Source of the DNA: Nemertoderma westbladi
Lineage: Eukaryota > Animalia > Xenacoelomorpha
Reading direction: 5' to 3'
Assembly (NCBI GenBank): GCA_032718475.1
Contig: JAUCBJ010006486.1
Span: 1 to 61,153 of the forward strand
DNA: 61,153 nt
Part shown: in pieces, positions 13,164-60,582 of the stretch
Position numbering within the stretch: position 1 is the first letter of the stretch
Layout of the letters: the number at the start of each line of letters is the position of its first letter
Notes under the pieces: model-generated
Told to the model about the DNA's origin: nothing
Seen by the model: only the letters and a program-made list of their open reading frames with translations
Databases searched by the model: none
Made by a program: the position numbers and the translations under genes

Positions 13164-13174
13164 CGCTTGCGCTT

Positions 13175-16024: not shown

Positions 16025-16086
16025 CTTCGTCTTCTGTGTTCTGTCTGTGTCTGGCAGTTACAGTTCGGCAGGCCTAGAGTTAAGAC

Positions 16087-35300: not shown

Positions 35301-36596
35301 CCCTTTTAGTACTGAATTGGAAAATATCTTGTACCTCCAGAACCTGAATATATTTTATGAAATTATAAAAATATTTCTTAAACTTCAACAAATGTCACAG
35401 GCTTGCTTCCTTTCAAAATAATCTATGTTTCCCCAATTATGAGGTTGTTTTTACCGTAGATTTCATTTCCGAAGTCTGTTTTTCTGTACAGCCTATCCTT
35501 CCTTATGTGTCTGTTGTCTGTCTGTCTGTCTGTCTGTCTGTCAAATAGAAAAATTGTGTTTCAACTGAAATCTGAATCTCCTTTTGGGTAATCAATGCCG
35601 TGGAATTCGAATCTAACAATAACTTATTCATTCGATTAGCCGTTCTTCTGATATTGTCTGTCTGTCTGTCATGTTATTATGTCTGTCTGTCAAAATATTA
35701 CTATCTAATCAGTTTGTTATTACGAATTATTAACAGGATGGCGATCTCTTTCAGGTCTGTCTGCCATGGCCACTGTTAGACTGTTAGACGTACAGTCACT
35801 CAATATAGGCCCTAATAATTAATATAATCAGATAATCGTATTATATAATATAATAAATAGTATATATCAGTATATTCCAAATGGCACAAGTAGGCTGCCG
35901 GTAATAGGCTACACTTAATTTCACTAGGCCTATTACAGTATATATTATGAGAATAAATTCTACCGTAATTCTAATTCACTACGCACTACGTACCGGTAAT
36001 AATAATAATAATAATTAATTGATATAGGCCTATACCGGTAATAAATAATTATTATAAATTTATATGATAATTATAGGCCTAATAAAAAACAGCATACGTC
36101 ATACACATAAGTGCAGCAGTGCCGTAAATTGATTCACAAATGACTGACTGAATATACAATTACTAACAAATGGATGGATGGAACGTAGTAGCTTTAGTCA
36201 CCTACAGGATAATATTATGATGTGTTATCCAATCACAAACGAGATAACAAACCACTCCAGGGTTTAGGGCACGGTACCCCGTAATGTATAATGGATAGTA
36301 GTCAACAATCTACCTACAACCAATTCGCCCTGCCTCAACAAAGGCAGCAAAGTTGGAAGTAAAAGGCCTAGATTTGAATCTCCATAGAAGGCAAGGTAAA
36401 CCCATTAGCCAATCAAATGGCTGCAAAAAAATTTCAAAAATTATTGTCCTAAGGCACTGAATAGTGAATTGGAACACTTTCTAAGGCGCTGTTGGGTGGT
36501 GGATGGCCTGCTTATCAAGTGAGATGCCATGGTACAACAGTTGGGACATAGCGCAGGTGGTTATGGTACAACAGGTGGGACATAGTACTAAAAGGG
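35301..36596. mobile_element. piggyBac-type non-autonomous element, 1296 bp
   Basis: 13-bp TIR CCCTTTTAGTACT, TTAA duplicated on both sides; empty site ACTGTTAAGGGAG in the 5' LTR near 59618. Confidence 0.96.
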
Positions 36597-36905
36597 TTAA
36601 GGGAGACTGGATTCGGGTGCTTTGAAAGTTATTGCGGTGCAGACCTACTGTATTATTCGATTGATCGTTACTATATAATTTCTGACAATATTATTCACTT
36701 TCGGGGAGATATTAACAGTTCCTTTAGGACGTGGCGCTTTAAGTATATAAAACAGAGTTATGACTTATACTAAACACAACGAGATGGCCACTGAGTTTCG
36801 TAAATAGCGCATTCTTTAGGAGATGCTTTATTATCTGTCACACTACTTCACACGTCTTCACACTACTTCACACTGATCTGCCGACCGTCACTGAATTTGA
36901 TCATA

Positions 36906-37750
36906 TGTGGCTGGCCACGAGAAAAGGGACCTTATGTCGCAAAACCTGATTCTGAGATAATCGCGTTTAAAGTTTCCCTCTATTTTTGAACAAATTTAAT
37001 TGGATTATCAATTTCGAAATGTATAAAACGATGAGGGAAATTCAAATTGGTTCTGATATTCAATATACCTAGGAAATAACTAATTACAGGAAGCAATATA
37101 AGATGCTGCAGTATTGTATATAACACGGTCTTAGGGTTTTCATGTCTGAATTTAGGACTGTAATAAATTGTAATTGTACTACTGTAATACAGTATGTAGG
37201 TACTGTTGGCCTACAGTTATTTTTTAAATGCAATATGGCTGTCATTTTCTTAATTTATCTTCGTTAGTTCTTAAATTTTGTAATCCCAATAAAGAATTCA
37301 AAATACAAATAATTTTAAAAAATTGAAAAATTAATCTTTTTTAAAAAATTTTAAATTAAAAAATTTTTTTTGCATACATGTTTTTTTGAAAATGTTGCAA
37401 AAATTTTTTTCAAATAGTTCATGAACAATATTAATAGTTTCAAAGTGTTAAAGTTGTATAAAAAGCCGAATAACATTGAGCTGCCTAATTATATAGTAAG
37501 AATTGCTATGATTTATTAATATTTTCCATTTTTTTTTAATAATCGCTTATTATACAGTAACCGCTATTAATAAAAATTTTTTTGCTACCCGATTCACCTT
37601 CACATAAATCGCTATAACTTTTTTTTAGAAATAGATATTGAGACACCGTTTTTTTTGTTAAAATCTCTGGAAAATTCTGCATCTCATAGGCCTAATAACT
37701 CAAAATCGACCTCCGGTGACATAAGGTCCCTTTTCTCGTGGCCAGCCACA
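36906..37750. mobile_element. Non-autonomous TIR element, 845 bp, TA target, superfamily unassigned
   Basis: 33-bp perfect TIR TGTGGCTGGCCACGAGAAAAGGGACCTTATGTC; empty site GATCATATATAAGG in the 5' LTR near 59920 implies a TA duplication. Confidence 0.95.
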
Positions 37751-38432
37751 TATATAAGGAGGATAGCAACTGACACATGTAGGGATTATGAAATAGCATC
37801 TAATTCACACAAAATCACTATAATGTAAGTCGCAATTGCTACAGGTAACCGGTCCCTCTTACCTTCAGTAATCAAGAAGATTGGGGGTTTTATGATTATT
37901 TATCGGTATTCTCCAAATATAACAACATATCCATCAATATACAACAATTAATAACAGACAGTAAACAGAAGTAAAATAGTGCGGTGAACAATCAATATAT
38001 GTTACTTATGCAAGTCAGTTCAGCAGTTTGGGTTGATAATAGATTTACGTTCTTGAAATCAAAGCCATCTAATGTTTTGGCCAAAGTCTGAAACTTCTAC
38101 AGAAGCACAGAAGAATTCTAAGCCGGTGTTCTGAGGCTCAGAAAAGGTAAACAAAGACCGTAATGCATTGCGCGGGTTTCCGTAGGCCCTTGTCCAACAT
38201 AAAATGAAAATCGCTCTGATTGGCTGAGCAGAACAAAGAGGTTCCACGTTTACAGAAAATCAGCTGACAGATTTCGTCATCTGAGCTCCAGTCTTTTAGA
38301 GTATTAGGCGCATTGCGGCAAAAATGACTTGTTATGTCCGCTAAAGCTTTTATACCACTCCCAGAAAATTGGATTTAATTCTATAAAATATAAAAAATCA
38401 CAGTTTCAAAAATATAAAAATACTCTAAACAG

Positions 38433-40815
38433 TTAGTCCTTCTTACGTGAACAGCGTTTACGCAGTTTTTTGAGGCTAGCAAGAGTCCTTTTCTCTTTGG
38501 GGCGAGCCACTTTACTAGGAGGGCTATAACTCCTGGGTGAAGGGTGCAATACAATTGCATCGGAAGGTTTAGGGTTGCGGTCGGTGTATCCGCCGGTCGA
38601 GGTACCCGGTTGATCAATATCAACCTCAGTGGAACGAGGTCGAACAACCTTTAGAGCGCGTTTCAAGACAGCAGCTCTCACTGGTCCCTGACGGGTCGTT
38701 TGCACGAGAGCGGTAGGTGGACCGTGATTAGTGAGAAATTTCCTCGGTTTGATGGTTCTTTCCAACTTGCGTTCTCTGGCTTTATATTCATATGGTTGTC
38801 TATGAACTTCTTGTAACTCTGGATGCGAGTTTATGAACAAGTCACCACGTGATTTATCAATGGTAGAAACTTTAAACTGTATGTAAGATCTTCCGGTTTC
38901 ACCATATAATATTGAGTTAAATTGACATAATAAGGATGGTCTTTGATCCCATAAAATGAGTTCGGTAAAGGTCTAGCGCGTAGGTTGACCTCGTGTACCA
39001 TACGACGGACAAGATCCGCTCGATTGTCCGGAGGTTCAACGAGTATACCGTCGACACGAGCGACCTCGATTGGCGGACGTTGTAACATAGGAGCGTCAGC
39101 GATAAGATCTCGAGATCTTAGGTTGATATCAACCGGTTGGGGTTGTACCGTGGCGAAGAGTTTGTCTCCGAAATGGGGAACCATCGAGGGATGAATGATG
39201 GTTTTGGAATAGAGATCAGTCATAAAGATTTGAGCTTCTGGTTGGGCTAAAGCTGCTTCTTCTTTCTCATCCATTTCGATGTGTTTCTCCTCGAGCTGAT
39301 TTTCCTCCGCTTGTCGTTGGAAGCGTTCATCCAAAAACTCTTGTAGAAAGTAGGTTCGTCCAAGTTCGATATCTTCTTCGAGATTCTGGATTTCCCGATC
39401 GAACTGAGGTAAAGCTAATTCTTTTACCGCTTGGACTTGCTGCTGCAATTTACGTTTCTCCAAACAATCGTAAGTTCCTTTTCCGATCTTTTGCCGAATA
39501 GCGTCTAACGCGTTTCGTACTACGCTCTCCTCAACTTCGGTGACGGGTTGTATCGGGGTTAGACCGGGATGATTATACGGGTTAAACGGCGATATTAAAT
39601 GTCCGCGTCCCAATCCGGCTATGTAAGATGGGCGAATATCTAAAGAGCCCGCTACCGGAGTGCCACCGGACAGCCCATGACTTTCTTGAGACGCATCTTA
39701 ATGGACACTGGCCTTAAAGATGCGGATGATCTAGCAAATGTCATGGGTGATAGGGAGTTGTGGCGGTGCAATTTTGTTGACAAGCCGGCACAGCATTCTT
39801 AAAAATGCAGCTGCAATGCAGCATGCCGATCCTAGTAGTAGCCACCGATTAATTGTTCGGGTAACACGAGATCTTTGAACAGTGAGTACAGTTCAGGAGG
39901 ATCCGTTATACTATTAGGATCAAGAGTTTGAGGTCTCACTAGGGAATGAGGAGGTCTGACCGAGTATTCCGGAACTCTGATCATCGGTTTATTTAAGGAT
40001 CGTTTGAGTCGAGCCAGCGTAGGTGATACGTCGAACAAGTTTCGCTCAAAACTCCCATAAGTATAGCGAGTAAAACTGTGTTTAGCGCAACGTCTCCGCG
40101 GATGTTTATGTCTTTCCGTTTGTTGGTTGGGTCTAGGGCATTCATCGCAATAATACCAAAGACGCACGTCTTGTAGAGGAAACGCGGGTGATCTTTCTCC
40201 AGTTTTACAATACTCCTCCATCTGTTCGAAGCTATCCGGTACCACAGGTAGTGGTCGATCGGAGGTAAGATACATCTTAGTGAAATAGAGTCGTTTGAGT
40301 TCTATCATAGGGTCATGATGTATACCTTGAGGATATCGAGTTTCTAGGTTTTGTTGACTGGCAATATTGAGATATGTTTCTCTCAAGAATTCCAGATATT
40401 CGTTGAAGTCACTGCGTTTATCCGGCTCTTCAACGTCTTCTCTTTCGAGTTGGTTGCGAATAGAATTTTTGTGTTCGATTCTCAGTTTATCGTTCCGACT
40501 CCGCTGGGTATGATATTTAAATAGGATCATTTCCCTTTCGGTGTCTACATCGTCCGTATCGTGTAAATCGATAGGGTGACCAGTAGTTAAGAAGTCCATA
40601 TACGTACCATTACGATGCGTATAGCGAGCGGTGAATTTTCTATAGTCCAATTCACACGTGAGTTGTTCCTTTGACATTGGCGGTTCGATATAACGGCCAT
40701 CGTCCTCCGTAGTAGTTTGACTAGCGTCGCCGCGTATTAAACTATCAACAAACGCTTGCAATGGTAGGGTATATCGCTCCCTGATACAAAGATCATCTTC
40801 TATCAACTCAATCAT
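38433..40815 (-). pseudogene. Accessory ORF of E3 (unknown protein), split by a LINE insertion and a probable frameshift
   Basis: ORFs 39832-40815 and 38831-39613 fuse in frame (..EQLIGG|TPVAGSLDIRPSYIAGLGRGH..; 601 aa) when 39669-39847 is removed; 38433-38840 overlaps in another frame. Confidence 0.85.
39669..39840 (+). mobile_element. 5'-truncated RTE-type LINE 3' end, 172 bp
   Basis: 7-bp TSD GCCACCG (39662-39668, 39841-39847); encodes GQPMTFLRRILMDTGLKDADDLANVMGDRELWR..stop, matching the RTE C-terminal GRP..DTG..DR..WR pattern; TAGTAGTA tail. Confidence 0.88.
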
Positions 40816-41194
40816 AGCTGCTATATGAGTTTATCGATATTATAATTAATTATAATTAGGCTAGCGGTCGTCGCTGCCTCCCCCTCAATGCCCCCGGACA
40901 GCGCAAGCTCCTCAGCGCTAATATACTGTCGCCGCTGTGTTTCTCGCCAACGTAGTAGCTACACAACGACAACAATAACCAGCGCGAGTCACTCCACTGT
41001 CCGTCCCAAGGGCTCAGAATTACTTCAGGTTCTTGCTACAGAGGTAGGGCAACTTTCACAACTGCGACTCGCCACTGTAAACACACTTTAGTAGTAACAT
41101 TCACCTATAAACGCACAAATTCCACACAACTGTCACAAATTGTACACATTTGGGCCATTTGTCCGTTAGTCAAGTGCCTTCCAGAATGCCACGT

Positions 41195-41732
41195 TGTTAG
41201 CTTATCCAATTCCGCTAACACAAACCCATAGAGTGGGCCATAAAGCAATATTGGGAGCACGAGGTTGATTACCAATCAACCTCGTGTCAGCCCAGTAAAC
41301 GGGGACAATAGGCCCCAAAGGAGACACACACAATAGAGGTCAGGGGCCAAACCCCTAACCGAGAGAGAACACAGGGAGTGAAGGGAAACACTCCAAAGGG
41401 TGCCAACAGGGATATCAACCAATCAGAGGGGGGAAAGGCATCGATTGAGTAGCAATAAGGCCACCGTGCAATATAACCAGTAACCTGTAATCATATCATT
41501 CAGTTTACTCAGTTAGTTCAGTAGGGTGGAACGGTGACTTCTATCACCGTCCGCTACCGCCATCATACTTATCTACCGGTAACTGTGCCATACTATACTA
41601 TAGCCTATATATCAACTATATTATACCTTATACATATAACCGAACATCAGAACTCTTTTACCTTTCACACACGGCGGGGACGCGTAGATAGAAAACCCAA
41701 CGGATAAACCGGGATCCGTAGATCCCGTCACA
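41195..41732 (+). repeat. E2 5' LTR (538 bp)
   Basis: TGTTAG...GTCACA; one substitution seen versus the 3' LTR. Confidence 0.97.
41472..41504 (+). promoter_or_regulatory. Putative E2 LTR core promoter (TATAA plus TCATTCAGT)
   Basis: TATAA 41472-41476 and Inr-like 41496-41504; positionally conserved with E1. Confidence 0.55.
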
Positions 41733-41896
41733 GTGACAGAACTAGTTCCACCCAGCTGCCCTGAAAGTGACAGAATCAGATCCGCCCAGCTGCCCTGACA
41801 GAGATAGAATCTTAGCAGCTGCCCTAACAGTCTGACAGTGATAGAACTGGATCCAACCAACTGACAGACTGTGGCTGCCAGACACCAAAGACGACG

Positions 41897-44800
41897 ATGA
41901 GTCAAGAGAGAGGAACGACACCGCCGCGGACCCCGGACGACGATCTAACGATCCGCGAGGCCACGGCGAGACGATACGAACCCACGACGCCGGTCGATGC
42001 TACGCCGACCACGTCGACGCAGGTTGACGCCACGTCGACAACGAGCAACCCGGCGAACCAAGATGTGGGGGGTCGTCTACAACCGGAGAGCGAGTCGAGG
42101 GAAGGAGACGAGAAGGGAGGAGAAGAGGAAGACGAGTCGACGCGGAGCGAGGGTCGACGTACCGATGTCGCCGGCCAGCCACAGGCCGAGGACGACGAAC
42201 AGTCCACCGGAACGGCGACGGTGGGGCCGTCGGTACGACGTCGGACCCGGAGAGATGGAGGAGAGGTCGGCGACGAGGACGTCGGGGTTTCTGATCGACT
42301 TCGACGGGCCTACCTCGCGACCCGGGAGCAACTGAGAGAGGCCAAAGGAGGGGCGAAGATAGACGAGGTGAGACTGACAAAAGGACTAGGTGAGTCGAAC
42401 AGATACTTTGATCACCTAGTGTGTTCTGGGCAGAGAGAACTAGCCGAGGAGAGAGCGAGGGGGGTTACCAACGAACTGATTGAACTATGGGAATGTGGGG
42501 GTATGGAACCTAGCGTAGTGTACGTAGGGCCATACTTAGTCGATGCCCGGGGAGTAAAATTAGTGGGTTGGAAGAGACCTGAGGAGGGCGAATCCGAGGT
42601 TAAACCCGAGGATTCGGTCTCGTCGGTTGGAGGAAGTTCCGGGAGGCGGGGGAAAGTTGATAGGACGGAGGGGCGGCGGGAGTCCGTCGCAACCGATAAG
42701 TCTGCTACATCCTCCGCGAAAGAAAGAAGGGTGCTGAAAATAAATCTGACGTATGAATTAGCGATGGTGGCGACAGAGCAGAATGAGTTAGAGAGACAAT
42801 TGAGAGAGGAAACCGCATGGTTGGAGAGAGAAAGAGAGTGGGCAAGGGAGGATAGAGAGAGAGTCAAGGAGTGTAGAGAGCGGGAGATGAGAGTAGGGGA
42901 CGAGCCGGCGACGTGGCTTGAGATGGTTGCGAGAGATACCGAGTTGGCCGAGCAAAGTTTACGAGAGTGCATAGAGAGAGAGATAGAGGCAGAGCGTGAG
43001 CGGGATGATTTGCGTGCCCAGCTAAGGGGGCTTGCGCAATATCAAGCCAAACTAGACCAGCGCCGACTAGAACTGGCGCGGTTGGAACTATCAGAGAGTG
43101 AGACCCCAGTTATAAGCACCGAGCGAGAAAACCAGAACTGGTGTAGCCGTACGGGCGGGGGGGGGTAGTAGTAATACGTTAGAAGTAGTTAATATTAATA
43201 GTACCGTAGTAGATAACCCTAATCCCTTTATTGCAGCAAATAATATTTTACCTGGTAGTAGTAATTTAAATTTAAATTCAAATAATAACATTAATTCAAA
43301 TAATTCGAATATTAATTTAAATTTTGAAAATAATAATTTAATTGATTTAACAAATAATATTGGGAATGGTGCTATTAATATGAGCGTGTCGGACGTACAT
43401 AACCCGGCAGACGGTGGCCTGGTAGGCCACGTAGTTAGTAGGCAGGAGGTGGCAGGGTTGAGCCAACCCGACGGCGGCCTGGTAGGCCACGTAGTTGGTA
43501 GGCAGGACGTAGCGGGGTTGAGCCAACCCGAAGTGGGCCTGATGGGCCACGCAGTAGTAGAGAGAGAGGCGGGGGTGAATAGACCCAGCCGTAGTAGAGA
43601 CAGTGCGTCGACTAGAGAGGGGTGTAGAGACGAAGTAAGAGATAGTGAAGTTAGATGTGGCGAATGGGGGGGGGGCTACCGGCGCCCCACCACATAAGAT
43701 TAGTGGTGAGAGAGAGGGGGCAGAGAATGCCCCACAAGAGGGGTATAGAAGTGTAGTAAGAAATAGTGAAGTTAGAAGTGGCGGGTGGGGGGGGGGGCTA
43801 CGGGCACCCCACCGCGAGAGATTAGTAGAGAGAGAGGGGGGGCAGAGAGTGTCCCACAGCCGTCAGCGGATAATGCGCGGGCCGAATCAGGTAAACCGCA
43901 ACACCCGGCGACGGAGAGTAATAGGGGGATTGCGAGTATCCCCAGCGGCGTGCGATCGAGTAGAGAGAGGCAGGTTGACGTCGCGAGAGGGCAGACGAAG
44001 CGTCGAGCCCGATCAGAAGAGGGAAGAAGAACAGTGGAGTTTAACCGGGAGGTCGACGAGAGATCTCACGAGCCGGAATACTACACAGAAAAGAGAAGAA
44101 GAGAACATAGTAGAAGAAGTGTCGCCACGAACGATAGCAGTGCGAGGACGGATAACGGACCGTCGACAGTAGAGATGGAGTCAGGGAGCCAGTGGGGTCG
44201 AACTTCGGGAGATTGCCGTCGCCCCGGAGAAACGCACCGCACGCCAAGAGAGGGGTACAGGAGGTACCAATACAAAGTCGAGAACAGGAGAGGGGATCGA
44301 AGAGAAGCTTCCCGACGGGATATAGCTGCCGATCGAGAGTGCAGTAGTCGCGGGGAGATTAGAGATTCGCGAAGAATAAACTTCGGTTCGGAAGGGCACA
44401 TGCAGACTGCAGGACATACTGTAGGCCTTACTGCACACACTATTATAGGCCATGCTGGGAGAGATAGAGTAGGCGATGGGGTAGCGTGAACGACAGGATT
44501 AAACCCGGAAGTCGCGGAGTACATACCGGTAGGTAGGCGAGAGGTAGGTAGGCCTATATCGGTACAGCAGCATGACTATAATACACAGGGACATAACATA
44601 TATCCAGGGGAGGGGGGAGTTATTGGAGATAGACGTATGGGCCCCAATGTATTAACATCAACCCCAGTACCAAACATACCGGCCGGGGGGGGGACAGGGT
44701 GACATTCCCCCATCACAATATCGACAATATACCCCGATAGGAGCAAGAACATCGAACTCCCTGGACGAGAGCAGGTCGTGCGGACAGTCAATACCACACG

Positions 44801-45200
44801 CGGCCGTACAGGGGACTGCTAGTCCACAGTTAGCTGGGAGCAGGGCCACACCGTGGCAGGGACAGAAAGAAAATAACACCAAAAATAAACACAATCCCAA
44901 TATACCCAGTAGGCCGAGTCTAGACAACCAAAACATTAAATCGGTACATATAAACCTAAGCGCGATACGTGAAGGACTATACAGGAAACGCTATAATCCA
45001 GGATTCCAATGTCAATTACATCGGGACGGAACCCATAAGACCAGGAGTTGCAAGTACTGGCAAGCGTTGCCCAAACGAGATCGTGTAGCCTACACAGACG
45101 CAAACGGACTATGTCATCGATGTGTGGTAAAAGGACACAGATCCTGAGAGTGTTGGAAAGGGAGAGGATGTGAAAGGACTAAACCAGGGGCAGAGAAGCC
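41897..45200 (+). pseudogene. E2 gag remnant (N-terminal region plus zinc knuckles; core domain and protease deleted)
   Basis: ORF 41897-43168 is homologous to E1 15128-16024; later stops and frameshifts at G runs; jumps near 44780 over the E1 gag core; knuckle codons at 45009-45170. Confidence 0.85.
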
Positions 45201-45574
45201 CATTAGCAAACATAAGGGAGTCGGGAAAGTAGGAGGAGGCGTGTTGCATACACACGCAGGACGGACACAGTGCGAGGGGGCATTGCACGGGCAGACACCG
45301 CGTATACCGAGGGACGAGCGGGGGTCGTCGAGGGCTCTAATGCCAGCGCACATACGAAGGGGGAGGCCAGCAAAGATGGCACCGAAGAGAGTGTGGCGAA
45401 GAGTTAGAGGATGTATAGGAGGGCAGCGGGAGAGTGCCTACTGGAAGAAGGGGCACCTGAGAGTTTTTAGTCGTCCAAAGTTTTGGACTGAGGGGGGTGG
45501 GAATGAGGGCGAGACGCCCTTCCCACGCACAAAATATAAAATAATTATTTAATTAAAAATAATTAAATAATAGA

Positions 45575-47180
45575 GTAGGTAGAAGTTAGGTAGTTAGTTA
45601 GTTAGTTAGTTAGTAGGTACGTAGTACCTAGTTAGAGAGTTAGTAGGTACGTAGTACCTAGTTAGAGAGTCAGTTAGAGGGTACGTAAGTACCGTTAGTT
45701 AGTTAGTTAGTTAGTAGGAGGGTACGTGTAGTACCGTTAGTTAGAAGAGTTAGTAGGAGGGTACGTGTAGTACCGTTAGTAGAAGAGTTAGTAGGAGGGT
45801 ACGTGTAGTACCGTTAGTAGAAGAGTTAGTAGGAGGGTACGTGTAGTACCGTTAGTAGAAGAGTTAGTAGGAGGGTACGTGTAGTATCGTTAGTAGAAGA
45901 GTTAGTAGGAGGGTACGTGTAGTACCGTTAGTAGAAGAGTTAGTAGGAGGGTAAATGTAGTACCGTTAGTAGAAGAGTTAGTAGGAGGGTACGTGTAGTA
46001 CCGTTAGTAGAAGAGTTAGTAGGAGGGTACGTGTAGTACCATTAGTAGAAGAGAGTTAGAGGGTACGTAAGTACCGCAGAGGGTACGTAAGTACCGCTAG
46101 GTAGTTAGAGTTAGAGGGTACGTAAGTACAGCTAGTTAGAGTAAGAGTTAGAGGGTACGTAGTACCGTTAGAGAGTAGGAGTTAAGGGGTACGTAGTACC
46201 GTTAGAGAGTTAGTAAGAGTAAGAGGGTACGTTGTACCGCTAGCTAGTAGAGAGAGCTAGAGTAGTAAGAGGGTACGTAGTACCGCTAGTTAGGGGTGTT
46301 AGTAGTAGCAGTAGAGGGTTGTGGGCACCGTAAGTGCCACGTAGTTAGAGTTAGTAGGGAATGCGCTGAACTTAGTGGGGCACGGGCGTGATGATGTGTT
46401 TGATGTAAGAGCAGGGTATGTTAATTAGAGTTAGTGGGAGTTAGAGGTTAGTAAGAGGGTACGTAGTACCGGTTGTGGTTGTGGGCACCGTTAGCGCCAC
46501 GTAGATAGAGGTAGAGTTAGTAAGAGGGTACGTAGTACCGGTTGTGGTTGTGGGCACCGTTAGCGCCACGTAGAGAGTTAGTAGAGTTAGTTAGAGTTAG
46601 TAGTAGTTCACATAATAACGTACCCACTCTGCCGGCACTCAGAGCGTCACGTGTAGGCGATGAGACGTAAAGGGGATGTAGAGGAGTAGAGACGGGCACA
46701 TAGGGTGCCAGAGAGTAGAAGAGTAGAGACGGGCACATAGGGTGCCAGGTAGTAAGTTAGAGAGGTAGTAGTATAGTAGAGAGGGCACATAGGGTGCCAG
46801 GTAGTAGAGTAGAGCAGAGGGGGCACATAGGGTGCCAGGTAGTAGAGCTAGAGAGGTAGTTAAGTAGTAGAAGGGCACATAGGGTGCCAGATAGTAGAGT
46901 GGTTGTGGGCACCGCAAGCGCCACGTAGTTAGAAGAGTGGAGTAGAGTTAGTAGAGCTAGTTAGTAGAGTTAGCAGAGCTAGTGGAGTAGAGTTAGTAGA
47001 GCTAGTTAGCGGAGTTGGTAGACTCGGAGGAGTCAAGTAGAGCTAGTAGAAGTAGAAAGTTAGTAGGAGTTAGTTAGACTTAGTAGAGAGTTAGAGTCAG
47101 TAGAAAGTTAGAGGCTCTCAGTTAGAGCTAGAAGTAGTAAGAGTTAGTAGTTAGCAGAGTTAGTTAGATAGTTAGAGTTA
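45575..47180. repeat. E2 3' UTR C-poor tandem and low-complexity repeats (38-bp unit and others)
   Basis: GAGGGTACGTGTAGTACCGTTAGTAGAAGAGTTAGTAG repeated at about 45718-46050; GGGCACATAGGGTGCCAG about 5 times; GTTA-type filler. Confidence 0.92.
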
Positions 47181-47602
47181 GTAAGCAGTAGGTAGATAGT
47201 ATGATAGCACAGGGGTAGCATTAGAGATTAAAGCCTTAGGGAGTGACAGAGAGTAGAGAGTAATAGTGCGGAGTGCGAAGAGAGCGTGGGCGCAATTCAA
47301 GTGTGGGGGAGGAGAAATGAGAGGAAGAGTGTGGGACGAAGAGGTCCGGGGGTATGCGAGAGTTGGAGTAGAATGGTGAGAGTGTTGGGGAAACAAAAAT
47401 TGTGTGAGAGAAGCGCACGATCGGCCCGACACGAGACGCCAGAGGGTAGTGACATCATACCCATAGGGAGCGGCCTGGAAAGCCGACTCCGGAAAAAAAA
47501 TAGACCCACCCCACACCCGATAATAAGATCGGGATCCAGCGGAATTGTAGCGCACTTGAGTTGGATGCTATCTTCTCACCGGGAAGATAGCATGGGGGGG
47601 AG

Positions 47603-48140
47603 TGTTAGCTTATCCAATTCCGCTAACACAAACCCATAGAGTGGGCCATAAAGCAATATTGGGAGCACGAGGTTGATTACCAATCAACCTCGTGTCAGCC
47701 CAGTAAACGGGGACAATAGGCCCCAAAGGAGACACACACAATAGAGGTCAGGGGCCAAACCCCTAACCGAGAGAGAACACAGGGAGTGAAGGGAAACACT
47801 CCAAAGGGTGCCAACAGGGATATCAACCAATCAGAGGGGGAAAAGGCATCGATTGAGTAGCAATAAGGCCACCGTGCAATATAACCAGTAACCTGTAATC
47901 ATATCATTCAGTTTACTCAGTTAGTTCAGTAGGGTGGAACGGTGACTTCTATCACCGTCCGCTACCGCCATCATACTTATCTACCGGTAACTGTGCCATA
48001 CTATACTATAGCCTATATATCAACTATATTATACCTTATACATATAACCGAACATCAGAACTCTTTTACCTTTCACACACGGCGGGGACGCGTAGATAGA
48101 AAACCCAACGGATAAACCGGGATCCGTAGATCCCGTCACA
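47603..48140 (+). repeat. E2 3' LTR (538 bp)
   Basis: Direct repeat of 41195-41732. Confidence 0.97.
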
Positions 48141-49492
48141 CACGTTATTATTATTTATCCCTGGATACTAGCAGTGTGCTATTTATTCCGTATGCTATTC
48201 AATGGGGCAAGCTTTCTATTGTTCTTTTAACTCGCTTCTAATTCTAGTGTGGTTGTTGCTATGGTGACATTATGGAAAGCTAGCAGTAGAATTAGGGTAA
48301 TTCTCATGCATACAGATCTGGGATGCTATTTAATAGTAATTCTTTAATTGTCAATATTCCCCTTTATACATGATTTTATGAATTTTATCGGCTATTGACT
48401 AGATATTGGAGATTCTCGCACACTAATATACTTTATAGGGTGAATCTCCGCTCCCATGATCTATTAATTAATGGAATTTTGGGAATGTTATAAATTGTAT
48501 AAAATGACAATTTATCAAATTCATGAGAGGATATGAATTTAAATTTATTCCCGTAAATTTTATTATTTAATATTAAAATAGACACAATTTTATTCCAGAG
48601 CATGTCTGGGGACTAGGATCCTTAATTCTAGGAAATTTGTCCTTTTAAGAGTATCGGTAAGTGCTACGATATCGACTAGAATTTTTAAAGGATCTGAATT
48701 TTAACCGATTTTGGATTTCTAGATTTTCTTAGTTTACAAACTCCTTAGAGTTTATTTGTCTGCATTTACTCTATTATAGCATTTGTTTTAATAGATTTTG
48801 TAAATATTAAATAGTTATTATTTAAGATGGGCACCGATTTCTTCCAGAACTTGTCTGGGGACGTTAACCACTGATTCTAGAATTTTGTCTTTCAAGTATA
48901 TCGGTGGGTGCCGCGATATCTTAATCGACTAGAATTACAGATGGTCAGGGTTTAACAGATTTATTTTGCGTTTTACGCTACTGTTAAAGGGACATCACGC
49001 TACTATATGTATTATTCAATATACGGTATGAGAGCAATATTACAAGAAGCAATGTCAGTGAGAAGAGGCAAGTCGTTTCCAAGGTCTACCCAGAGCTTGG
49101 TTTAGCCGAGACACGAGGATCTGTACTTTGCATTCCTAATACTCTACTTACCAATAATACTTGAGTATAGTAGGAGCTTTATTGTACTTTAATAAGTATG
49201 GACATTTCATCTTACTGTAGTCACGTATTTATAATATGACACGGACAGTAAGGAAAGAGAAAAATAATTATTTTCTCGCGTTGCACTAAATATAATGTTA
49301 AGTAATTAAGTAATAAACACGAGTATATATTATATATTGCACTAATCTACTAAATAATCGCTAAAATAACATTCTACTAAATAAAATTAAAGAAAACGAT
49401 TATAATAAAATTACATAATAATACATACATAAATATAAAAATAATAAAAACAAATATAAAATAACATAGTCACACACCCACTCCGTATGCTA

Positions 49493-51338
49493 TTACGTTG
49501 GGGAGTCCCTAGATGTTTGTTGGATTAGGGAAGTGGTCGTGGGAAGAGTATCTTGCCTTCCATAGTTTCTGGATAGTTCTCTGTCTCTTTCCAGTAAACA
49601 TAAACGACCAACTGGGAGATTGAATTGCTGTGTTTCGAATACAATTCCAGGTTTCTTAAAGTTACGTCGCATGACGACGAGTTCTACCGATTGCACTAAA
49701 CCATCAATGGATATATGAGTCTCGATGATACGACCTGTCTGCCATCGCTTACGTGGAAGATCTGATTCCACAATAAGGACCATGTCTCCGGAGACGTCTG
49801 ACGTTTTCTTGCTGCGCAAACCACTTGGTTCGAAGTTGTAGCGTAGGCAGATAATGTTTTTCGAAATGGTCAGCGAAACGATGAGACAATAACTGCATAA
49901 GTTGCCAAGTTTGTCGGCAGTATTCGTCTCCGTCCGTGATTTCCGATTGTGGGAGCATGGCTACAGGTTTCTTCAGTAGGAAATGCGCGGGTGTTAGCGC
50001 TTCTAGGGAGTCGGGACTCGATGAGACTGGCATAAGCGGTCTCTCGTTAAGATAGGCGGCGATTTCTTCCATTAACGTCCGCAAAAGTTCGTCGGTGAGA
50101 TACACGCGGCACGGCACTATAAAGTGAAATGCGTTCTTCACGCTCCTTATTAATCTCTCCCAACTTCCTCCCCGCCAAGGGGCGTCGGCGGCGTTGAAGG
50201 TCCAGCTAGATGCTGTTACCCTTAGCTGATCGTCCACCTGTCTTTGGTTCCAATCTTTAACGTAAGCTTTGATCTCATTATTGGCGCCAATGAAGTTCGT
50301 TCCCTTATCAGATCTCATCGTGTTGCTAGTTCCAAAGCGAGCGATCTGTTGGTGTAAACTCAGTATGAAGCTGTTGGTAGATAGATCGTTCACCATATCT
50401 AGATGGATCGCTCTACAAGTCATACAGACAAAGATGACACACCATCGCTTGACTATAGTCCTAGCACGATATACTTCAATAGGGCCAAATAAATCCACAC
50501 CAGTATTAGTAAAGGGTGGTTCATAGAAGCTTACTCGTTCCCTAGGTAGTTCTGCCTCTCGCTGTGTTAAAGGCCTACTGAATGCTTTCCTACAGAGTAT
50601 ACAGTTCCTAAGAACTTGGTTCAGAGCTCTACGGGGTTTATGAAAATAATAGCGAGTTCGAATTTCGCTAAGAACTCGTTCTCTACCAGCATGGTAAAGC
50701 CTACTGTGAACATCTACAATCATCTTGATTTGTATTTCAAGATTTCTAATGAGTATGGGAAACTTAGTGTCAAAGGACAATGGAGCATTGGTTAATCTCC
50801 CTCCAACACGTATTAACCCATCTATCATTGTGCTAGAGAAACGATCCCTTAAGCACGTCTGTGGATTTCTCAACAACAGGAAATACTTATCGGAATCTTC
50901 ATGGCATTGCAAGAGTCTCAGTATCTGCTTATTGGTTTCTTCATGCTCTTGATAACTGATCTTCTCCTTCAGAAACCTATCCGACACTTTGTATTTGGGA
51001 AGATCTTTAATAACACGGACCTGCTCGGATGTCAGTGGAGCGGTATCACTAGTGATCTTCGTCCTGGAGTAGTGATGATGGAAGCATCGCTTCAAATACA
51101 CGACGGCCTTACAAAGCCGATTCCAGGAGCTATAGTGATTTATCGCTCTTTGCAGGAGAGGTGAGAGTCCCTGCGAGACGTCTGGTGTTCCAGATTTCCA
51201 GTCTCTTTCTCTGATTTCCACAACAGATTTATTTGTGGTGGGGGAGTTTAGATCCACAGCGTCGTCCCCGGAAATGTGTAGTACAGACAGATCTATCACG
51301 GGTTTAAATAACGAACGTATAAATAATGAGGAGGCCAT
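49493..51338 (-). pseudogene. pol: E3 pol: integrase and C-terminal domain (frameshifted at both ends)
   Basis: HHCC (HSRLYH..CILC), DDE core (GVDLFGP, SDKGTNF, GSWERLIR), LTPAHFL, and C-terminal PRKRWQTGRI..DGLVQSV in ORF 49493-49819. Confidence 0.95.
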
Positions 51339-52366
51339 TCATCCTCTTCTTTACTTAGGAAGTCGGGTCCACCTAACCAGTCTGGAGTATCTATCAGTTC
51401 TTGAGGAGTTGCTCCTCTGGAGGCGATGTCGGCTGGATTAATCGTCCCAGGGCAATGTCTCCATTGATCTACATTAGAGCGACTAAGTATAATGGCTACT
51501 CTGTTGGTAACGAAGACGCTGAACTGACAGACTTCATTGGTTATATACTCCAAAACGAGTAAAGCATCAGTCCAATAGACAGTTTTCTCCAGTGGATAGT
51601 CGATCTGTTCTGTTACATTCCGGCCGATGGCTGTAGCGTATAGAGCCGCTTTTAACTCCGCTCGAGGAACTCGTAGTTTGTTGTTTATCAAGGCCTTAGA
51701 GGTAACCAAGGCAACTTTGATTCCATCCGGAGTTTCAACCCTCAGGTAGGCTACTATACCTATTCCCATATCGCTGGCGTCTCCAAACACATGGAGTTGA
51801 TAGGAATACGTGGGGAGAACGTCACCAAAATATGAACGGGAAATCATAAAGTTCTCGATGGATGGTAGAGAATCTTCCCATTTAGTCCATTTCTTTAGTA
51901 GTTCTCCCTTAAGTGGATCATCCCACGAGTGGTTTTCAAGCCACATTTGTTGCACTAAGCTCCGAGCAACCAATATAACTGGGCTAATAAATCCCAATGG
52001 ATCGAAATAAGTGCTCAGGATACTTAGACAAATCTGTTTAGTTCTAACTGGATTATCTCGCTGTTTTAACTGGAAAAACAGGATATCTCTCTCCGTGTCC
52101 CATTTCAAACCAAGCGTCTTGGTTTCCGGAAGATCGTCCTTGATAAGGTCCAGATCTTTAACACCTCGGTCTTCTACCGGGATCGATTCCAGAAACTCAC
52201 GGGAGTTACTAGTGAATTTGGTTAGTCGAAATCCACCGCGTCGTAAACACTCTACCGTTCCCTTGGCAACATCAATGGCTTCTTCCACCAATGGGAGGAA
52301 CTTTAAATTGTCGTCCATGTATATATCCCGTTTGATGTTGTTGATAACCGCTTTAGAGAAGGCGTC
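51296..52366 (-). pseudogene. pol: E3 pol: RT C-terminal half and Pao-type RNase H
   Basis: YMDD at about 52310-52321, GGFRLTKF, LGLKWD, FDPLGFISP, HVFGDAS, PRAELKAA, WTDA, NPADIASRG; in frame with the upstream ORF across a premature TGA at 52367-52369. Confidence 0.95.
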
Positions 52367-54703
52367 TCAGTTGTCATAAGCAGTGGTACGCACTACTGAA
52401 CAAGCGTTCGAGGGGCTCGAGATGATCCCGAAAGCCTGGATGGTCATCCAGTACTCCACCGGTTTTTGGTTGAGGTCTCCTTCAGGCCACCACAGAAATC
52501 GTAGGCTGTCTCGATCCCTATCCAGCGCCTTGACTTGTAAGAACATGCCTTCTATATCCGAAGCGAAAGCGATAGAATATTGCCGTAATCTTAATAGTAT
52601 TCCCAACAAGGATTGGAGTAAGTTGGGTCCCGGCAACAATTCGGAGTTCAGGGATTGGCCCATGTAAAGGGCGGAGCCGTCGAACACTACCCGGACTTCG
52701 TTGGGTTTACCGGGTTTGGGAACGTAATGATGTGTTAGATAATACGTTCTCTCTGTGATGGGTGTTTCTTCCGGTACTCGCTCCGCGTATCCCTTATCGA
52801 TGAATTTCTTCAGCTGGGTCTTATACATTTCTTTAGCTGAAGCATTTGCCGTAAGATGCCGATGTAGTTGCACGATTCTCTGCTTGGCTCTTTCTTCCTC
52901 GACGGACAGGGCCTTGTCGTAAGAATTAGGCTCTACTGCTTCTTGAGTGAAGAATCGTACGGCGTGTTCATCGCGAATCTTATTGTTGTATCGATCTATC
53001 ACCTCGTTTAATTCGTCGATGTAGTCGGATTGTCCGCCATGATTGATGAGATGGCACAGGTTTACTTGGTTTCGCCAAGTCTCATTTTCGGTGAGGAGGT
53101 CTATTGTATTTTCCTCGTCGAATAATTGGCTAATGTCGTCATTATCTGAGGAGTATGGTGTTCCCTCAGTTGTGGTTTCTCCCTCACTGATTTCTTCTTC
53201 CCATTCACTCACCTGATGTATCTTTTCATTAGGTAGTCTTTCCATGAGTGTTCTACGGGAAGGTCCAGTGAAGTACCAACCTACTCTCGTTCTTCCCGCA
53301 TATGTTTGTAATGGTTGCGGTCGAGCAGGCCGTTTTTCTAATGTCTCAAGCGCCTCATGCGCATTTTGGCCGATCAATATCTGTACCCCTGCGTAGTCGG
53401 TGTTGAATCTAGGGATATCATGCTGCTGGGTAAAATGATCTTCATCCCAGTTATAAGGTTCCACTTGGCTGGTAGCAAAGTTCTTTATCGCCACCATTTT
53501 TACTGACCTTATGCTATGTTCTCCTAGTTCATCCTGGGGAGTGGACAACGCGCCTACATAATAATCTGTAGCTACTGTGGATTTCCAAACCTGCATAATT
53601 CCTGAAAGGTTCAACTTAGTTCGGAACTTGGGTTGTCCAGCAAAGATGTCTTCGGCTAGTTCTTTGTCGATGAATGTACCTGTGCTGCCGGAGTCAAGGA
53701 GGGCGTTTACTATAAAACTCTTACCTAACTCGTGGACTCTCAGCTGCACTACTGGGAATTCCCGAATTCCAACGTTGGAAGTTAGTGCTTTCCAAGATGG
53801 TTGTCGGTCCGGAATAGTCAGTTGCGCTTCGTTATCGGTTTCAGTCTCATACGTAAGCGCTCGATACACTGCGGTGTTTATCATATAACAGGATTCGTTT
53901 TCGTCGGAGAATTCGTCCGTGTAGAATCCTTCCATCTCAGAGCTGTGGTCAGTGTCGTTCACATCACTGAATTGGACATGTAGTTCGGACTCACTTACCT
54001 GACTCGTGCGGGTTCTTTCAAATTCTGTGTGCAGCAAGATATGATGTATCGCGCCGCACTTAGCACACCTCGCGTTGGAGTAACAGGTCCGCCGTTGGTG
54101 TCCTTGTCTGAGACAATTATAACACAACCGCTTATCCCACATGACATCACGTCTATCCTTTAGGGATTTCTTCAAGAATTCATCACATCCACTCAAACGA
54201 TGGGGCCCGTCGCACAATGCACATTTGGGTTTGATGTTACTTACTTTACCCTGTGTGGTGTTGTGCACACTTGTTCTTTCCTCGGGCTTTCTTCCATGCA
54301 TTATCTTAGGAGACGTGGGAGGAGTTGTTGTTACCTGTTCTCTCCTGTCACTGGTTCGGGACTTAGATTTACTTACGTCTTTGCGGATTTTGTTAACATA
54401 GTAAGATCTTTCGGTGTCTTTCCCGCTGTTCTCCTCGTGGGAGGTCTGGCTTTCGCCGTCGTCTGTATAACACACTAGTGTTACCTTTCTCCTAGAAATG
54501 GGTTTTTCACTCACCTTGTTTTCCGTTGTCTTCTCTCGGGACTGCTTTAGGAGCTGTAATCTTACCTCTACATTTAAGAATGACATGAGATCAGCCATGG
54601 TAGGGTCTCTTTGTTGCTGGTCCATCATATGGAGAACTCTTTTGTCCCAACGAGTACCTACTCCACCCTTTGGCAAAGTAGATGCTACGGCTCCAACAAC
54701 CAT
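52367..54703 (-). pseudogene. E3 gag zinc knuckles, protease and RT N-terminal half
   Basis: BEL triple knuckle (CALCDGPHRLSGC, CYNCLRQGHQRRTC, CAKCGAIHHILLH), LLDSGS, RVVFDGSA, GPNLL, SDIEGMFLQV. Confidence 0.95.
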
Positions 54704-57430
54704 GGAACTCTGATATTCATGAGACTTACCTAACCAATCTAGTTGTCTACAGATCTCCTGAATCTCATCGGAAAACTCTATAATCCCGCTGCTAAGAAAC
54801 TTTCGGGGGCTACTAATTTCGCATACAAATACCTAGCTATGTTAGTCCTATTACCATACCTGATGTTTAGTGTATCCCAAACTTGTCTTAATCCATCTGG
54901 ATGTCCAATAAACTTTAACGCCATCAACTTGGGAGGTCCTTCCAAACACTCGATGAGGAATCTAAGTTTCTCTCCGTTAGGTAGTACAGAGTTCTGTATG
55001 TTATCTTTATAATATTCATTAAAAGGTAACCATTTCATCTCATCTCCATTGAAATTGACTATCTCTCCCACCTTTACCGCTTGACGGGCTTCGGTTCTAG
55101 CCATTTGACGCGTAAAACTTTCTTGGGCCATCGTATTATTTAATATTGAGTTATTGGTATATAAATTTCTCGGATTATGATCAGGTCTATATGGAATATC
55201 ATTATCAACAGGTTTATAATTACCCTTAATAGGGTTTACTATAGGAGTTTCTACTTCACTAGCAGTATAGATGCGTGTAGGCTCCACACCTTGCGCATGA
55301 AATACTTCAGACCTAACAGGTTGACACATTGTTACAGGGGGTGGTGGTATACCCTTTTGTATATTTACTAATTTGTCACGTTCTAACGCGATACTCTGCT
55401 GCACTTCTTGCAACTCTAACCTACCCTCTCTTACTGTTCCCTTTAACTGCTGAACAGTCCCTTCCAACTCTCGGACCTGTTGGGAGGAACGTATTCGATG
55501 TTCCTCCAGCTGCCCGAGCACGAGATCCATCCCCCGCCGTCCCTCATCCACCCACTCTACCACCGAAGTGGGAGCCGCCAACATGGTAGCGGGTAGACGA
55601 GGGATGACGGGCGACAAATCGTTGATGTCTTGCTCGGCGTCCAGGACCGGGATTGATTCAGGGGCTGCTCTACTGGGCACAGGTAGTTTAGTACTGTACA
55701 AAGGGAATTTAGAGTTAGGTTCTGGAAGTACAGGAGTCTCTATCACAGAGGGAGTGGCTTCGAGAACAGGCCTAATTATTTCAGGCTCATCTACTATAGT
55801 AGGGAGTCTTTCTACTCTAATAATTTGGTCTGTAGGCTCAGGATTACTTAAATCTACACTAGCTAGTTGCCTTCTCACAGCTGGGGGCAAATTAGGCAAT
55901 TTCTGCCGGTGTAGCGCCCTTCTATGTCCGCTGGAACGAGATTTATTTCCTCTACCTTCAGGATCTGTTGTATCGCCTTCATCAGAGGATGTAAATCCCT
56001 GTCTCTTGGGAGTAGATCGACTTATCATCTGCATCTGAGTAGCTGTTCTCTGTTTATTTAAGTAGTCTTGCTTCACTTGAAGATTTTCCAACTCTAGTTG
56101 GGCTGTCTCTTCAGATGCCCTCTGTTCTGCTTCTACTACTGCCTCTGCCGCTTTTCTTTCAACTTCTGCCGCTGCTGCTGTCGCTTTTCTTTCAGCTTCT
56201 ACCGCTGCCGCTGCCACTTTTCTTTCAGCTTCTGCCGCTGCTGCTGCCGCTGCCTTTCTGTCTTCTATCTGTTCTTTTCTTTAGCTGCTCTTCTTGGACC
56301 CTAGCGATGAGAATGCTTTCATCAAATTTAGCCTGCTCCGCGGCTAACATTTCCGCATCTAATGAGTCTAACACAAATTTGGCTCCCTCACTATTAGGGT
56401 GAAGTCCAGCTAGCCGTCTCCTTAACTCTTTGTCACCTATAAATCGTTGATAGTCCGACAGATATATGTCAATAGCGTCCTTCTTCTGAGGTTTCTCTCA
56501 TGTAACTTCGCTTTCCACCTGAGAAAAGGTAGCGTCTGTTGATTCTCCGTGGGTCATGCGCTCGGTTAGCTGAGCTTTCCATTGTGTCGTTCCCTGGACT
56601 TTAAGACTCACCCGTTGGAACCAAGTTTTTACGGCCACTTGCAATGACGTGTCTTGGCTTCTCTTCGAAGCTTCTTCAAAGGCCGAAAGGATTAGTCTGA
56701 TCCGTAAGATTCGTTCTCGAACTTGATAAAGCAGCTCTCCCTGCTCTCGAGGTCCTTGTCTTTGTTGGAATAGGTGTTCTTCTAGTCGCTCTAAAGAACT
56801 GAAGAATCCCTGGACATATCCTGCTGCTGACCTCTTCCACACAGCTGGATCTCGAGTGTCTCTTAATACTCCCATCCTGTATAAGTCCTCCCAGGCAGCT
56901 TCCGATAAGTTAAACGGAAGTCCGGGTCCGGGGAAGTTCCATTGCGTCTTGACAATAGACTTCAGTTCCTCCATCGTGTATCCCGCATAACTGTCCTTAG
57001 TCGATCGCTTACCTCTCGCCCAATCAATTTGATGTTCTTCCACAGCGATCAACACTCTAGTGAGTACAGCTCCGGGAAGAATTAGAAGGGGATCTGGATA
57101 AACCGCTTCTGTCATCCTTGCTCCAATCTCGGGTATCAACTCTACAGTGTCTGAACTACTGGAGTTATCAGGCCGTTGAGAAATAAGTTCTCGGTTCCGG
57201 TGCTGCTGCTGTTTAACAGCTGCCTCTTGGTCCCGCTTGACTTGGGCCCTAGTGCATATAATAGACCTGTGCTTTACTAGCCTAGGGTCTGATATTACTA
57301 CTGTAGGGATGACCTTTCTTACAGTAGGAGGGGACTTGGACTTCGGTCTCAGATTTTCTATGCTCCTATCTGAGTCACAGACTGTTCTTTCTAGGAGACT
57401 ATCTGACAGTGTTTGTTTTGTGTCAGCCAT
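54704..57430 (-). pseudogene. gag: E3 gag N-terminal region and core (interrupted)
   Basis: ORF 54778-56217 has a DUF1759-like block (FNGDEMKWLPF..LIECLEGP..WDTLNIRYG) and AAAEAERK repeats; ORF 56498-57430 lies upstream on the same strand. Confidence 0.8.
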
Positions 57431-57566
57431 GATTTATATTGCAGTTGAATGCCTACTACTATAACGACAGTTAAAGTAAGTCTAGTAATTCAGTATCAAC
57501 TGTAAGCCAAGTAATTACTACCGATACCGTTACTCAGCGTAACGTGATATATATATAATATATTAA

Positions 57567-57914
57567 AATACCGGTATACTTATAGTATATATAAGAATTA
57601 TTACAGACTAGAATTAGTCACAGAATACCGGTATATAATTTCAGCCTAAATTTATATAAATAAATATAATAAGCCTACCGTAAATACCGGTATACAGCTA
57701 TGGTATATATAAGTATTATTATAGACTAGGATTAGTCACAGAATACCGGTATATAATTTCAGCCTAAATTTATATAAATATATATAATAAGCCTACCGTA
57801 AATACCGGTATACACCTATGGTATATATAAGTATTATTATAGACTAGGATTAGTCACAGAATACCGGTATATAATTTCAGCCTAAATTTATATAAATATA
57901 TATAATAAGCCTAC
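57567..57914. repeat. 118-bp tandem repeat (about 3 copies) in the E3 5' leader
   Basis: AGTCACAGAATACCGG at 57616, 57734, 57852. Confidence 0.93.
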
Positions 57915-59432: not shown

Positions 59433-60582
59433 TGTTCGCGCTTTCAGACCTTTAGCAGTTTAACCTGCCAATTTTAGTTGTCCTCTTGTTTATAAATCGA
59501 CTTTAGCCTATAACAATTATTGAAGTGCAACATGAAGTAACATGTACATGTAACATGTAACTGTAACATGAACTTACATTAGCTGAAGCCAGTCTATGCG
59601 CGATCATTTACCCACTGTTAAGGGAGACTGGATTCGGGTGCTTTGAAAGTTATTGCGGTGCAGACCTACTGTATTATTCGATTGATCGTTACTATATAAT
59701 TTCTGACAATATTATTCACTTTCGGGGAGATATTAACAGTTCCTTTAGGACGTGGCGCTTTAAGTATATAAAACAGAGTTATGACTTATACTAAACACAA
59801 TGAGATGGCCACTGAGTTTCGTAAATAGCGCATTCTTTAGGAGATGCTTTATTATCTGTCACACTACTTCACACGACTTCACACTACTTCACACTGATCT
59901 GCCGACCGTCACTGAATTTGATCATATATAAGGAGGATAGCAACTGACACATGTAGGGATTATGAAATAGCATTTAATTCACACAAAATCACTATAATGT
60001 AAGTCGCAATTGCTACAGGTAACCGGTCCCTCTTACCTTCAGTAATCGAGAAGATTGGAGGTTTTATGATTATTTATCGGTATTCTCCAAATATAACAAC
60101 ATACATATCCATCAATATACAACAATTAATAACAGACAGTAAACAGAAATAAAATAGTGCGGTGAACAATCAATATATGTTACTTATGCAAGTAAGTTCA
60201 GCAGTTTGGGTTGATAATAGATTTACGTTCTTGTAATCAAAGCCATCTAATGTTTTGGCCAAAGTCTGAAACTTCTACAGAAGCACAGAAGAATTCTAAG
60301 CCGGTGTTCTGAGGCTCAGAAAAGGTAAACAAAGACCGTAATGCATTGCGCGGGTTTCCGTAGGCCCTTGTCCATCATAAAATGAAAATCGCTCTGATTG
60401 GCTGAGCAGAACAAAGAGGTTCCACGTTTACAGAAAATCAGCTGACAGATTTCGTCATCTGAGCTCCAGTCTTTTAGAGTATTAGGCGCATTGCGGCAAA
60501 AATGACTTGTTATGTCCGCTAAAGCACCTACACGGTACATTGCGGGGAAAAATGACTTGTTATGTCCGCAAAAGCTTTTACA
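59433..60582 (-). repeat. E3 5' LTR (1150 bp)
   Basis: Sense TGTAAA...CGAACA; short TAACATG expansion near 59530-59580 and a duplication of about 50 bp near 60490-60575 that are absent from the 3' LTR. Confidence 0.95.

Follow-up and report, generated by a model that had tools for sequence, protein, structure and literature searches.

The window analysed here, a stretch of 61,153 nt from Nemertoderma westbladi (contig JAUCBJ010006486.1), contains a long terminal repeat (LTR) retrotransposon, E3, with an interrupted open frame in the env position, between pol and the 3′ LTR. This arrangement raises three linked questions: whether the frame is a gene of E3 at all, whether the E3 family maintains it, and whether its product is an envelope protein or a different kind of accessory factor.

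Architecture and classification of E3

By its domain content E3 is a BEL/Pao (Belpaoviridae) retrotransposon on the minus strand, and it is filed there because its gag-pol carries DUF1759, Peptidase_A17, Integrase_H2C2 and DUF5641 in order. It possesses what defines the Belpaoviridae, namely LTRs, a gag, a pol arranged PR-RT-RH-INT and domains specific to BEL/Pao, and the relatives of its integrase have a Pfam set identical to its own. The framework of the element is as follows.

59617..60582, minus strand: 5′ LTR of E3, from comparison of the LTR pair
49493..57430, minus strand: BEL/Pao gag-pol in six pieces (DUF1759, zinc knuckles, protease, RT with YMDD, Peptidase_A17, integrase, DUF5641)
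40816..49492, minus strand: 1.7-kb spacer between pol and the third gene, with candidate splice acceptors, split by the E2 element
38355..38362, minus strand: short polypurine tract on the 5′ side of the 3′ LTR, from the sequence
36596..38354, minus strand: 3′ LTR of E3, interrupted by an inverted-repeat element of about 0.85 kb (about 36905-37750)

The two LTRs agree at 98.2% over 603 nt and at 99.4% over 311 nt. E2 lies inside the spacer at 41195-48140 with a 5-bp target duplication; once E2, an RTE fragment described below and the inverted-repeat element are subtracted, E3 has a net span of about 16.0 kb. The copy in the window is dead, in gag-pol and accessory gene alike.

Several further features of the element were recorded. 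The 0.85-kb inverted-repeat element at 36905-37750 is non-coding, has terminal inverted repeats of about 35 bp and sits at a TA run. The gag (54778-57430) bears an N-terminal extension of about 780 aa ahead of DUF1759, with an alanine/glutamate-rich repeat, and is disrupted twice, through a stop at 56498 and a change of frame near 56280. A 311-aa frame at 56498-57433 was considered as an ORF0 and rejected, being an in-frame continuation past one stop into gag. The 5′ leader (57434-59615) is AT-rich, 2.2 kb long and contains a 118-bp tandem repeat in three copies, and the 5′ LTR has an internal duplication of about 44 bp near its start, which appears as a joint in sequencing run X3. The outer junctions (36590-36600 and 60578-60590) yield a perfect target duplication of 5 bp only when each LTR end is set one base short of the usual TG...CA. 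The primer-binding site of Belpaoviridae is 18 nt long and corresponds to host tRNA-Arg or tRNA-Gly; in E3 a TGG follows the 5′ LTR end after one intervening base, and U5 and leader can pair around the primer site (59580-59630) in a folding run made without a shuffle control. The BEL/Pao superfamilies are BEL, Tas, Pao, Sinbad, Suzu, Dan and Flow.

The window also contains other repeats. E1 (9133-16636) and E2 (41195-48140) are related LTR elements whose LTR pairs agree at 99.6% and 99.8%. Domains of a BEL/Pao gag and protease are present in E1, tandem repeats occupy the place of pol in both, and neither gave a tblastn match to the RT, RNase H or integrase of E3. They are likely young gag-protease elements without autonomy, using pol supplied in trans. 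A partly palindromic 67-bp satellite fills 17355-29191 (177 copies) and 32911-35008 (31 copies) at 97-98% identity, and a 29-bp array lies at 6412-8715.

Reading frame of the third gene

A sense gene between pol and the polypurine tract is real and belongs to E3. It begins at an ATG at 40815 and ends at a stop at 38433 on the minus strand, the sense strand of E3, and comprises the following parts.

39848..40815, minus strand: 5′ piece of the gene, 322 aa from the ATG at 40815, hydrophilic, containing a Cys/His cluster
39662..39847, plus strand: 3′ fragment of a presumed RTE-type non-LTR element, with a short (TAG)n tail and a 7-bp target duplication, forming the first break of the gene
38851..39661, minus strand: middle piece, about 270 aa, from its open frame and codon usage
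38846..38850, minus strand: second break, a frame change, where other copies have additional DNA
38433..38845, minus strand: basic C-terminal tail, about 136 aa, with KKLRKR near the end and the stop at 38433, from its net positive charge

One frame thus runs from 40815 into the inserted fragment, the next is open between the fragment and a stop at 38831, and a third is open from 38972 to 38433. The probability of such open frames by chance is 5.7e-9 for the 5′ piece, 2.6e-7 for the middle piece and 1.5e-3 for the tail, and codon usage resembles that of gag-pol with z values over shuffles of 5.5, 5.5 and 2.3, respectively. Both GC content and codon usage of the gene look native to E3.

We provisionally take the inserted fragment to be of RTE type on the strength of a C-terminal motif and the name given by an earlier reader. 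Its 7-bp target duplication occurs at 39662 and 39841, 179 nt apart. A first-pass annotation of the window had held that removal of this insertion restores a 601-aa frame; the arithmetic is right, the duplication flanks the fragment and the empty site exists in other copies. It had also placed the gene about 1.7 kb from pol, E2 excluded, and its end just before the polypurine tract, and both placements agree with our measurements: the gap to the pol stop is 1,726 nt, and the gene's own stop lies about 70-80 nt ahead of the purine tract and the 3′ LTR. Its estimate of about 730 aa with the frameshifted tail stood as regards the gene and probably fell short as regards full length, for which about 730 aa is likely a minimum, as other copies have extra DNA at the second break.

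The start codon lies 1.7 kb and 21 ATGs beyond the pol stop, from which we infer a spliced or separate transcript. Candidate splice acceptors occur at 40818/40821, 41036 and 49377; the one near 40820, suggested earlier, is weak, and the pyrimidine tracts at 41036 and 49377 are better.

Conservation of the gene across E3 copies

Six of seven sequencing runs contain part of the stretch, none of them on record as RNA, and four were aligned to 38000-41700. Matching contig records over this interval, whose depth is not a copy number, reach 38,420 in X1, 27,060 in X2 and 13,342 in X3, with all 30 bins covered. Identities in these three sets, which come from two studies, spread over 80-100%, from under 90% to over 99%. 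A further run under another organism label, X5, has 92 matching records; its RNA nature is only guessed, so it has no bearing on expression. E3 therefore has many diverged copies and the accessory gene is family-wide, whereas absence from other copies had been set beforehand as an outcome that would count against it.

These copies also clarify the two breaks. Contigs that skip exactly the 179 nt of the RTE fragment were found in X1 (n = 1) and X3 (n = 2), and this empty-site joint indicates that not every family member has the insertion. Records of other copies end at 38845 or begin at 38851 at the second break, with 42 or 28 unaligned letters (X1, X2 and X5). Because they leave the alignment here, the window copy probably misses a stretch, and an intact protein would likely exceed 730 aa; the frame change would probably reflect this missing stretch rather than a simple slip. 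Internally deleted variants, with skips of 494-706 nt, also occur among the copies. Coverage in other copies is unbroken from the spacer through the purine tract into the LTR.

Probable selection on the accessory gene

To score the differences among copies, we used the 40 best-supported of 791 variants; 31 fell in the gene, and two in a two-frame overlap were dropped, leaving 29. The sample is small, chosen by support and drawn from contigs pooled over mixed subfamilies. Within it, 16 of 29 differences are silent (p 0.0025), where the substitution spectrum of the run itself predicts 28.7%; just three fall at second codon positions (p 0.005), and all 15 third-position differences are silent. 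The other five frames give 3, 9, 10, 13 and 5 silent changes of 29, the value of 13 belonging to an antisense frame. By piece, the silent share is 8/16 in the 5′ piece, 3/4 in the middle piece and 5/9 in the tail, which with its low codon-usage z is the weakest part for coding signal.

The signal is concentrated in segregating sites (minor share above 5%), with 11 silent differences of 16 (p 0.001, omega about 0.18). The near-fixed ones behave almost neutrally (5/13 silent, p 0.31, omega about 0.64), as would be expected if the window copy has decayed since insertion. A neutral dN/dS had been named in advance as evidence against the gene; the listed differences give an excess of silent changes instead. 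The accessory gene is thus probably under selection, on evidence from these substitution patterns that is good, not final.

Protein anatomy and predicted structure

The reconstructed protein of about 734 aa contains nine cysteines, four of them in or near one cluster, two N-glycosylation sequons and a single RxRR site at residue 269. It is hydrophilic throughout, with GRAVY values of -0.93, -0.43 and -1.08 for the 5′ piece, middle piece and tail and best 19-residue hydropathies of 0.61, 0.71 and 0.12. Simple hydropathy finds no signal peptide at the acidic N-terminus (best 11-residue value 1.39), ahead of which a spliced upstream exon is possible. Nor is there a transmembrane segment in the letters present (maximum 0.71), the window copy probably missing a stretch near the C-terminus, or any fusion-peptide-like stretch.

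Two parts of the protein stand out.

40078..40149, minus strand: C-x2-C-x11-H-x4-C cluster with one further His and basic surroundings, from a pattern compared with shuffles
39248..39544, minus strand: predicted bundle of three helices with a long acidic helix after it, model residues 40-138, from pLDDT

The cluster, at protein residues 223-243, is a predicted zinc site. A loose CCHC/CCHH pattern, picked after the cluster had been seen, arises in 0.4% of 20,000 shuffles, and the cluster has no Pfam match. In the middle-piece model, which is helical and not beta-rich, residues 40-138 have pLDDT blocks of 69-89 with one block of 55, and the remainder is of low confidence. For the 5′ piece, which has a predicted beta/alpha region, single-sequence AlphaFold modelling reached a pLDDT of just 32.

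The anatomy given by the first-pass annotation is largely borne out. The hydrophilic character without signal peptide or membrane segment, the Cys/His cluster (with the spacing given above) and the basic C-terminus, net positive with KKLRKR near its end, are all found. Its acidic coiled-coil-like stretch becomes, in the model, the three-helix bundle and the long acidic helix after it.

Searches for relatives

None of the three pieces matched Pfam, including any transposable-element (TE) domain, and the best PHROGs value was E 0.0085, over a helix. Two pieces searched against PDB sequences gave no match (best E 1.2), nor did two pieces against IMG/VR or one against JGI metagenomes. With the 5′ piece only, a 5.8-billion protein set returned 0 of 1,179 longer and 0 of 448 near-length candidates, and 1.84 billion representatives returned no hits. 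Atlas gave best values of 0.77 and 0.88, below the lead threshold, and included DUF8039 at 0.86.

At the structural level, Foldseek comparison of the middle-piece model with PDB and BFVD gave nothing at E <= 0.001, and a VIA fold search with the same piece peaked at Z 8.9 among generic three-helix bundles; blank searches with such a predicted model do not establish a new fold. No likeness to viral fusogens emerged from Pfam or PDB sequences, or from the fold search on the partly confident middle-piece model, and Pfam and PDB searches found no likeness to CERV or Rev. A known env or TE protein, the match specified beforehand as counting against an accessory gene, therefore appeared in neither the sequence nor the fold searches.

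As a control, the E3 integrase found 354 relatives, the best 120 at 31-45% identity. Since even the integrase relatives are this distant, the E3 lineage is unsampled and a fast-evolving accessory gene would be missed, so the orphan status of the gene would count as weak evidence. The accessory protein probably represents a new protein family.

Of 575 metagenome loci carrying a related integrase we also surveyed the best 80, none of which matched the accessory gene (best E 0.97). Nineteen of these 80 extend at least 1.5 kb downstream of the integrase; seven of the 19 have gag within 0.75-1.2 kb of it, five more have an LTR-like repeat beginning 0.4-0.83 kb past the integrase match, and a sense ORF of at least 300 aa other than gag is seen in none of the 19, which indicates that the gene is not general among E3's distant kin. 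Seven long ORFs downstream of related integrases were considered as a third-gene family and rejected as gag of circularly permuted assemblies. Loci L001, L027, L033, L040, L052, L059 and L075 are integrase-LTR-gag permutations of this sort (collapsed repeats or circles) that mimic a long third gene. A duplicated or captured BEL/Pao gag was likewise rejected as the origin of the gene itself: it lacks the DUF1759 capsid domain and the triple zinc knuckles of such a Gag, hhalign against a seven-sequence gag alignment gave 0.3-0.4% probability, and the best hmmsearch E was 0.024, over a low-complexity helix.

Proposed role and alternative explanations

Taken as a whole, the gene very probably encodes an accessory protein that is soluble and that selection on the element maintains. 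What that protein does is a more tentative matter. By analogy with retroviral Rev and with CERV of Cer1, it may well be a nuclear RNA-binding regulator of splicing or export, a reading that we prefer while holding it somewhat short of probable. The gene would be expressed from a spliced subgenomic RNA, and it is such splicing of a third gene that would make export of the unspliced RNA necessary. The CCHC-type cluster and the basic stretches might then bind zinc and RNA, the helical bundle could serve self-association or act as a scaffold, the basic tail would drive nuclear import, and the protein as a whole would help unspliced genomic RNA to leave the nucleus. The stronger version, in which this complex BEL/Pao element has evolved, independently of Rev and CERV, a large nuclear regulator of a new class, binding zinc and exporting or protecting the element's RNA, is doubtful, though it deserves mention; if true, it would help to explain the very high abundance of a 16-kb element in its host.

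A product directed against host silencing is unlikely but fits the anatomy (zinc cluster, basic tail, no membrane segment) equally well. Plant VANC proteins and viral silencing suppressors are examples of counter-silencing; in this reading a VANC-like or suppressor-like factor would bind E3 DNA or small RNAs and blunt host repression, in keeping with the abundance and diversity of the family. However, no known suppressor was matched, a p21 row (Z 7.4, rank 26) lies within the generic helical background, and evasion factors are often fast-evolving, whereas the segregating sites of the E3 gene are mostly silent. A shade less probable is capture of a host or viral gene that does something else and has diverged beyond recognition; its product might be an enzyme, a cofactor of chaperones or a structural protein associated with particles. 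The GDSL esterase and DEDDy exonuclease ORF3s of bdelloid LTR elements provide a precedent (PMC5408684), BAG domains are among the top fold rows of the bundle (Z 8.0-8.9), and the predicted beta/alpha region of the 5′ piece could belong to such a protein. Yet the BAG rows do not rise above unrelated bundles, Pfam, PHROGs, PDB and the representative set are silent, and the native-looking base composition and codon usage speak for E3 itself.

The position of the gene speaks for a highly divergent env or cell-to-cell spread protein, and BEL/Pao elements have more than once taken up unrelated envs (bioRxiv 2021.11.23.469668). Such a protein would have its signal peptide in a spliced exon, its anchor in the missing stretch and its basic tail in the cytoplasm, and both the RxRR site and the placement of the second-break gap, about 136 aa from the C-terminus, suit it. 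The strong hydrophilicity of every piece, the few cysteines and sequons, the lack of a fusion-peptide-like stretch, the helical rather than beta-rich model and the blank viral fold searches make it improbable all the same. The non-env status applies to the letters present, and the missing stretch could in principle hold a transmembrane segment. Least probable of all, and largely refuted, is a passenger: E3 would then merely carry a neutral frame, or what remains of a different element nested in it. Insertions lie within insertions across the window and the near-fixed differences are near neutral, but the silent excess at segregating sites, the continuous coverage of other copies from spacer to LTR and the absence of any TE domain contradict it; the flanks show no inverted repeat longer than 8 nt, and their only direct match, 13 nt long, is between AT-rich spacers.

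We accordingly return to an accessory nuclear regulator as the preferred reading. The earlier proposal of a non-env cargo, acting in nucleic-acid binding or against silencing, is upheld as to a family-wide gene that looks non-env in the letters present, while the functions it named, a link to the unusual priming among them, are still putative. The E3 gene is a concrete candidate for the handling of RNA export or host silencing by an LTR element. The weight of this result is limited in that other LTR families are known to carry cargo that is not env, protein databases do not sample the E3 lineage and the roles are only putative.

Comparison with known systems

One BEL/Pao third gene is the env of roo. 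The ICTV profile of the family lists gag, pol and env only, with element lengths of 4.2-10 kb (PMC8742986), against which E3 measures about 16 kb net. In PMC8742986, bioRxiv 2021.11.23.469668 and PMC3118150, the third genes described for BEL/Pao are env-like, and the second of these sources traces more than one env acquisition from unrelated origins, including phlebovirus-like Gc and herpes gB-like proteins. Like Tas, the nematode Atlas/Cer-type elements and roo, E3 follows the order LTR-gag-pol-third gene-polypurine tract-LTR, with the third gene in sense and BEL/Pao pol domains. Unlike their env-like glycoproteins, its third product has, in the letters present, no signal peptide, membrane segment or cysteine-rich ectodomain. 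Searches confined to open-licence text turned up no description of a BEL/Pao third gene other than env-like ones.

The closest functional analogies come from Ty3/gypsy elements. CERV of the C. elegans element Cer1 is an accessory protein of 517 aa that resides in the nucleus and has a putative zinc loop rich in cysteine, a helical domain and a candidate NLS, and export of unspliced genomic RNA needs it (PMC10309623). The E3 protein is likewise probably soluble, with a cysteine-containing putative zinc site, predicted helices and a basic NLS-like motif, a likeness that serves as a working analogy only. CERV differs in its Ty3/gypsy family and in an N-terminal leucine-repeat region common to Gag, and no sequence or fold link between it and the E3 protein was found; with Rev/CERV-type export factors in general, the E3 protein shares anatomy only.

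Other LTR elements carry non-env genes in the same place. The ORF3s of bdelloid Ty3/gypsy elements, once classed as env, encode GDSL esterase, DEDDy exonuclease and coiled-coil proteins (PMC5408684), plant LTR elements have additional ORFs, many of them antisense (PMC7264820), and sORF2 is a non-env extra gene of Ty3/gypsy elements (bioRxiv 2025.03.14.642691). E3 resembles the bdelloid and plant elements in having a family-specific non-env gene between pol and the 3′ LTR. They belong to Ty3/gypsy or copia and the bdelloid cargos are recognisable enzymes, whereas the E3 gene is BEL/Pao, sense and unrecognised. A probably selected non-env gene of about 730 aa or more extends to BEL/Pao what CERV, the bdelloid ORF3s and sORF2 show for Ty3/gypsy, and the generalisation that retrotransposons evolve accessory regulators of their own would now reach this family as well.
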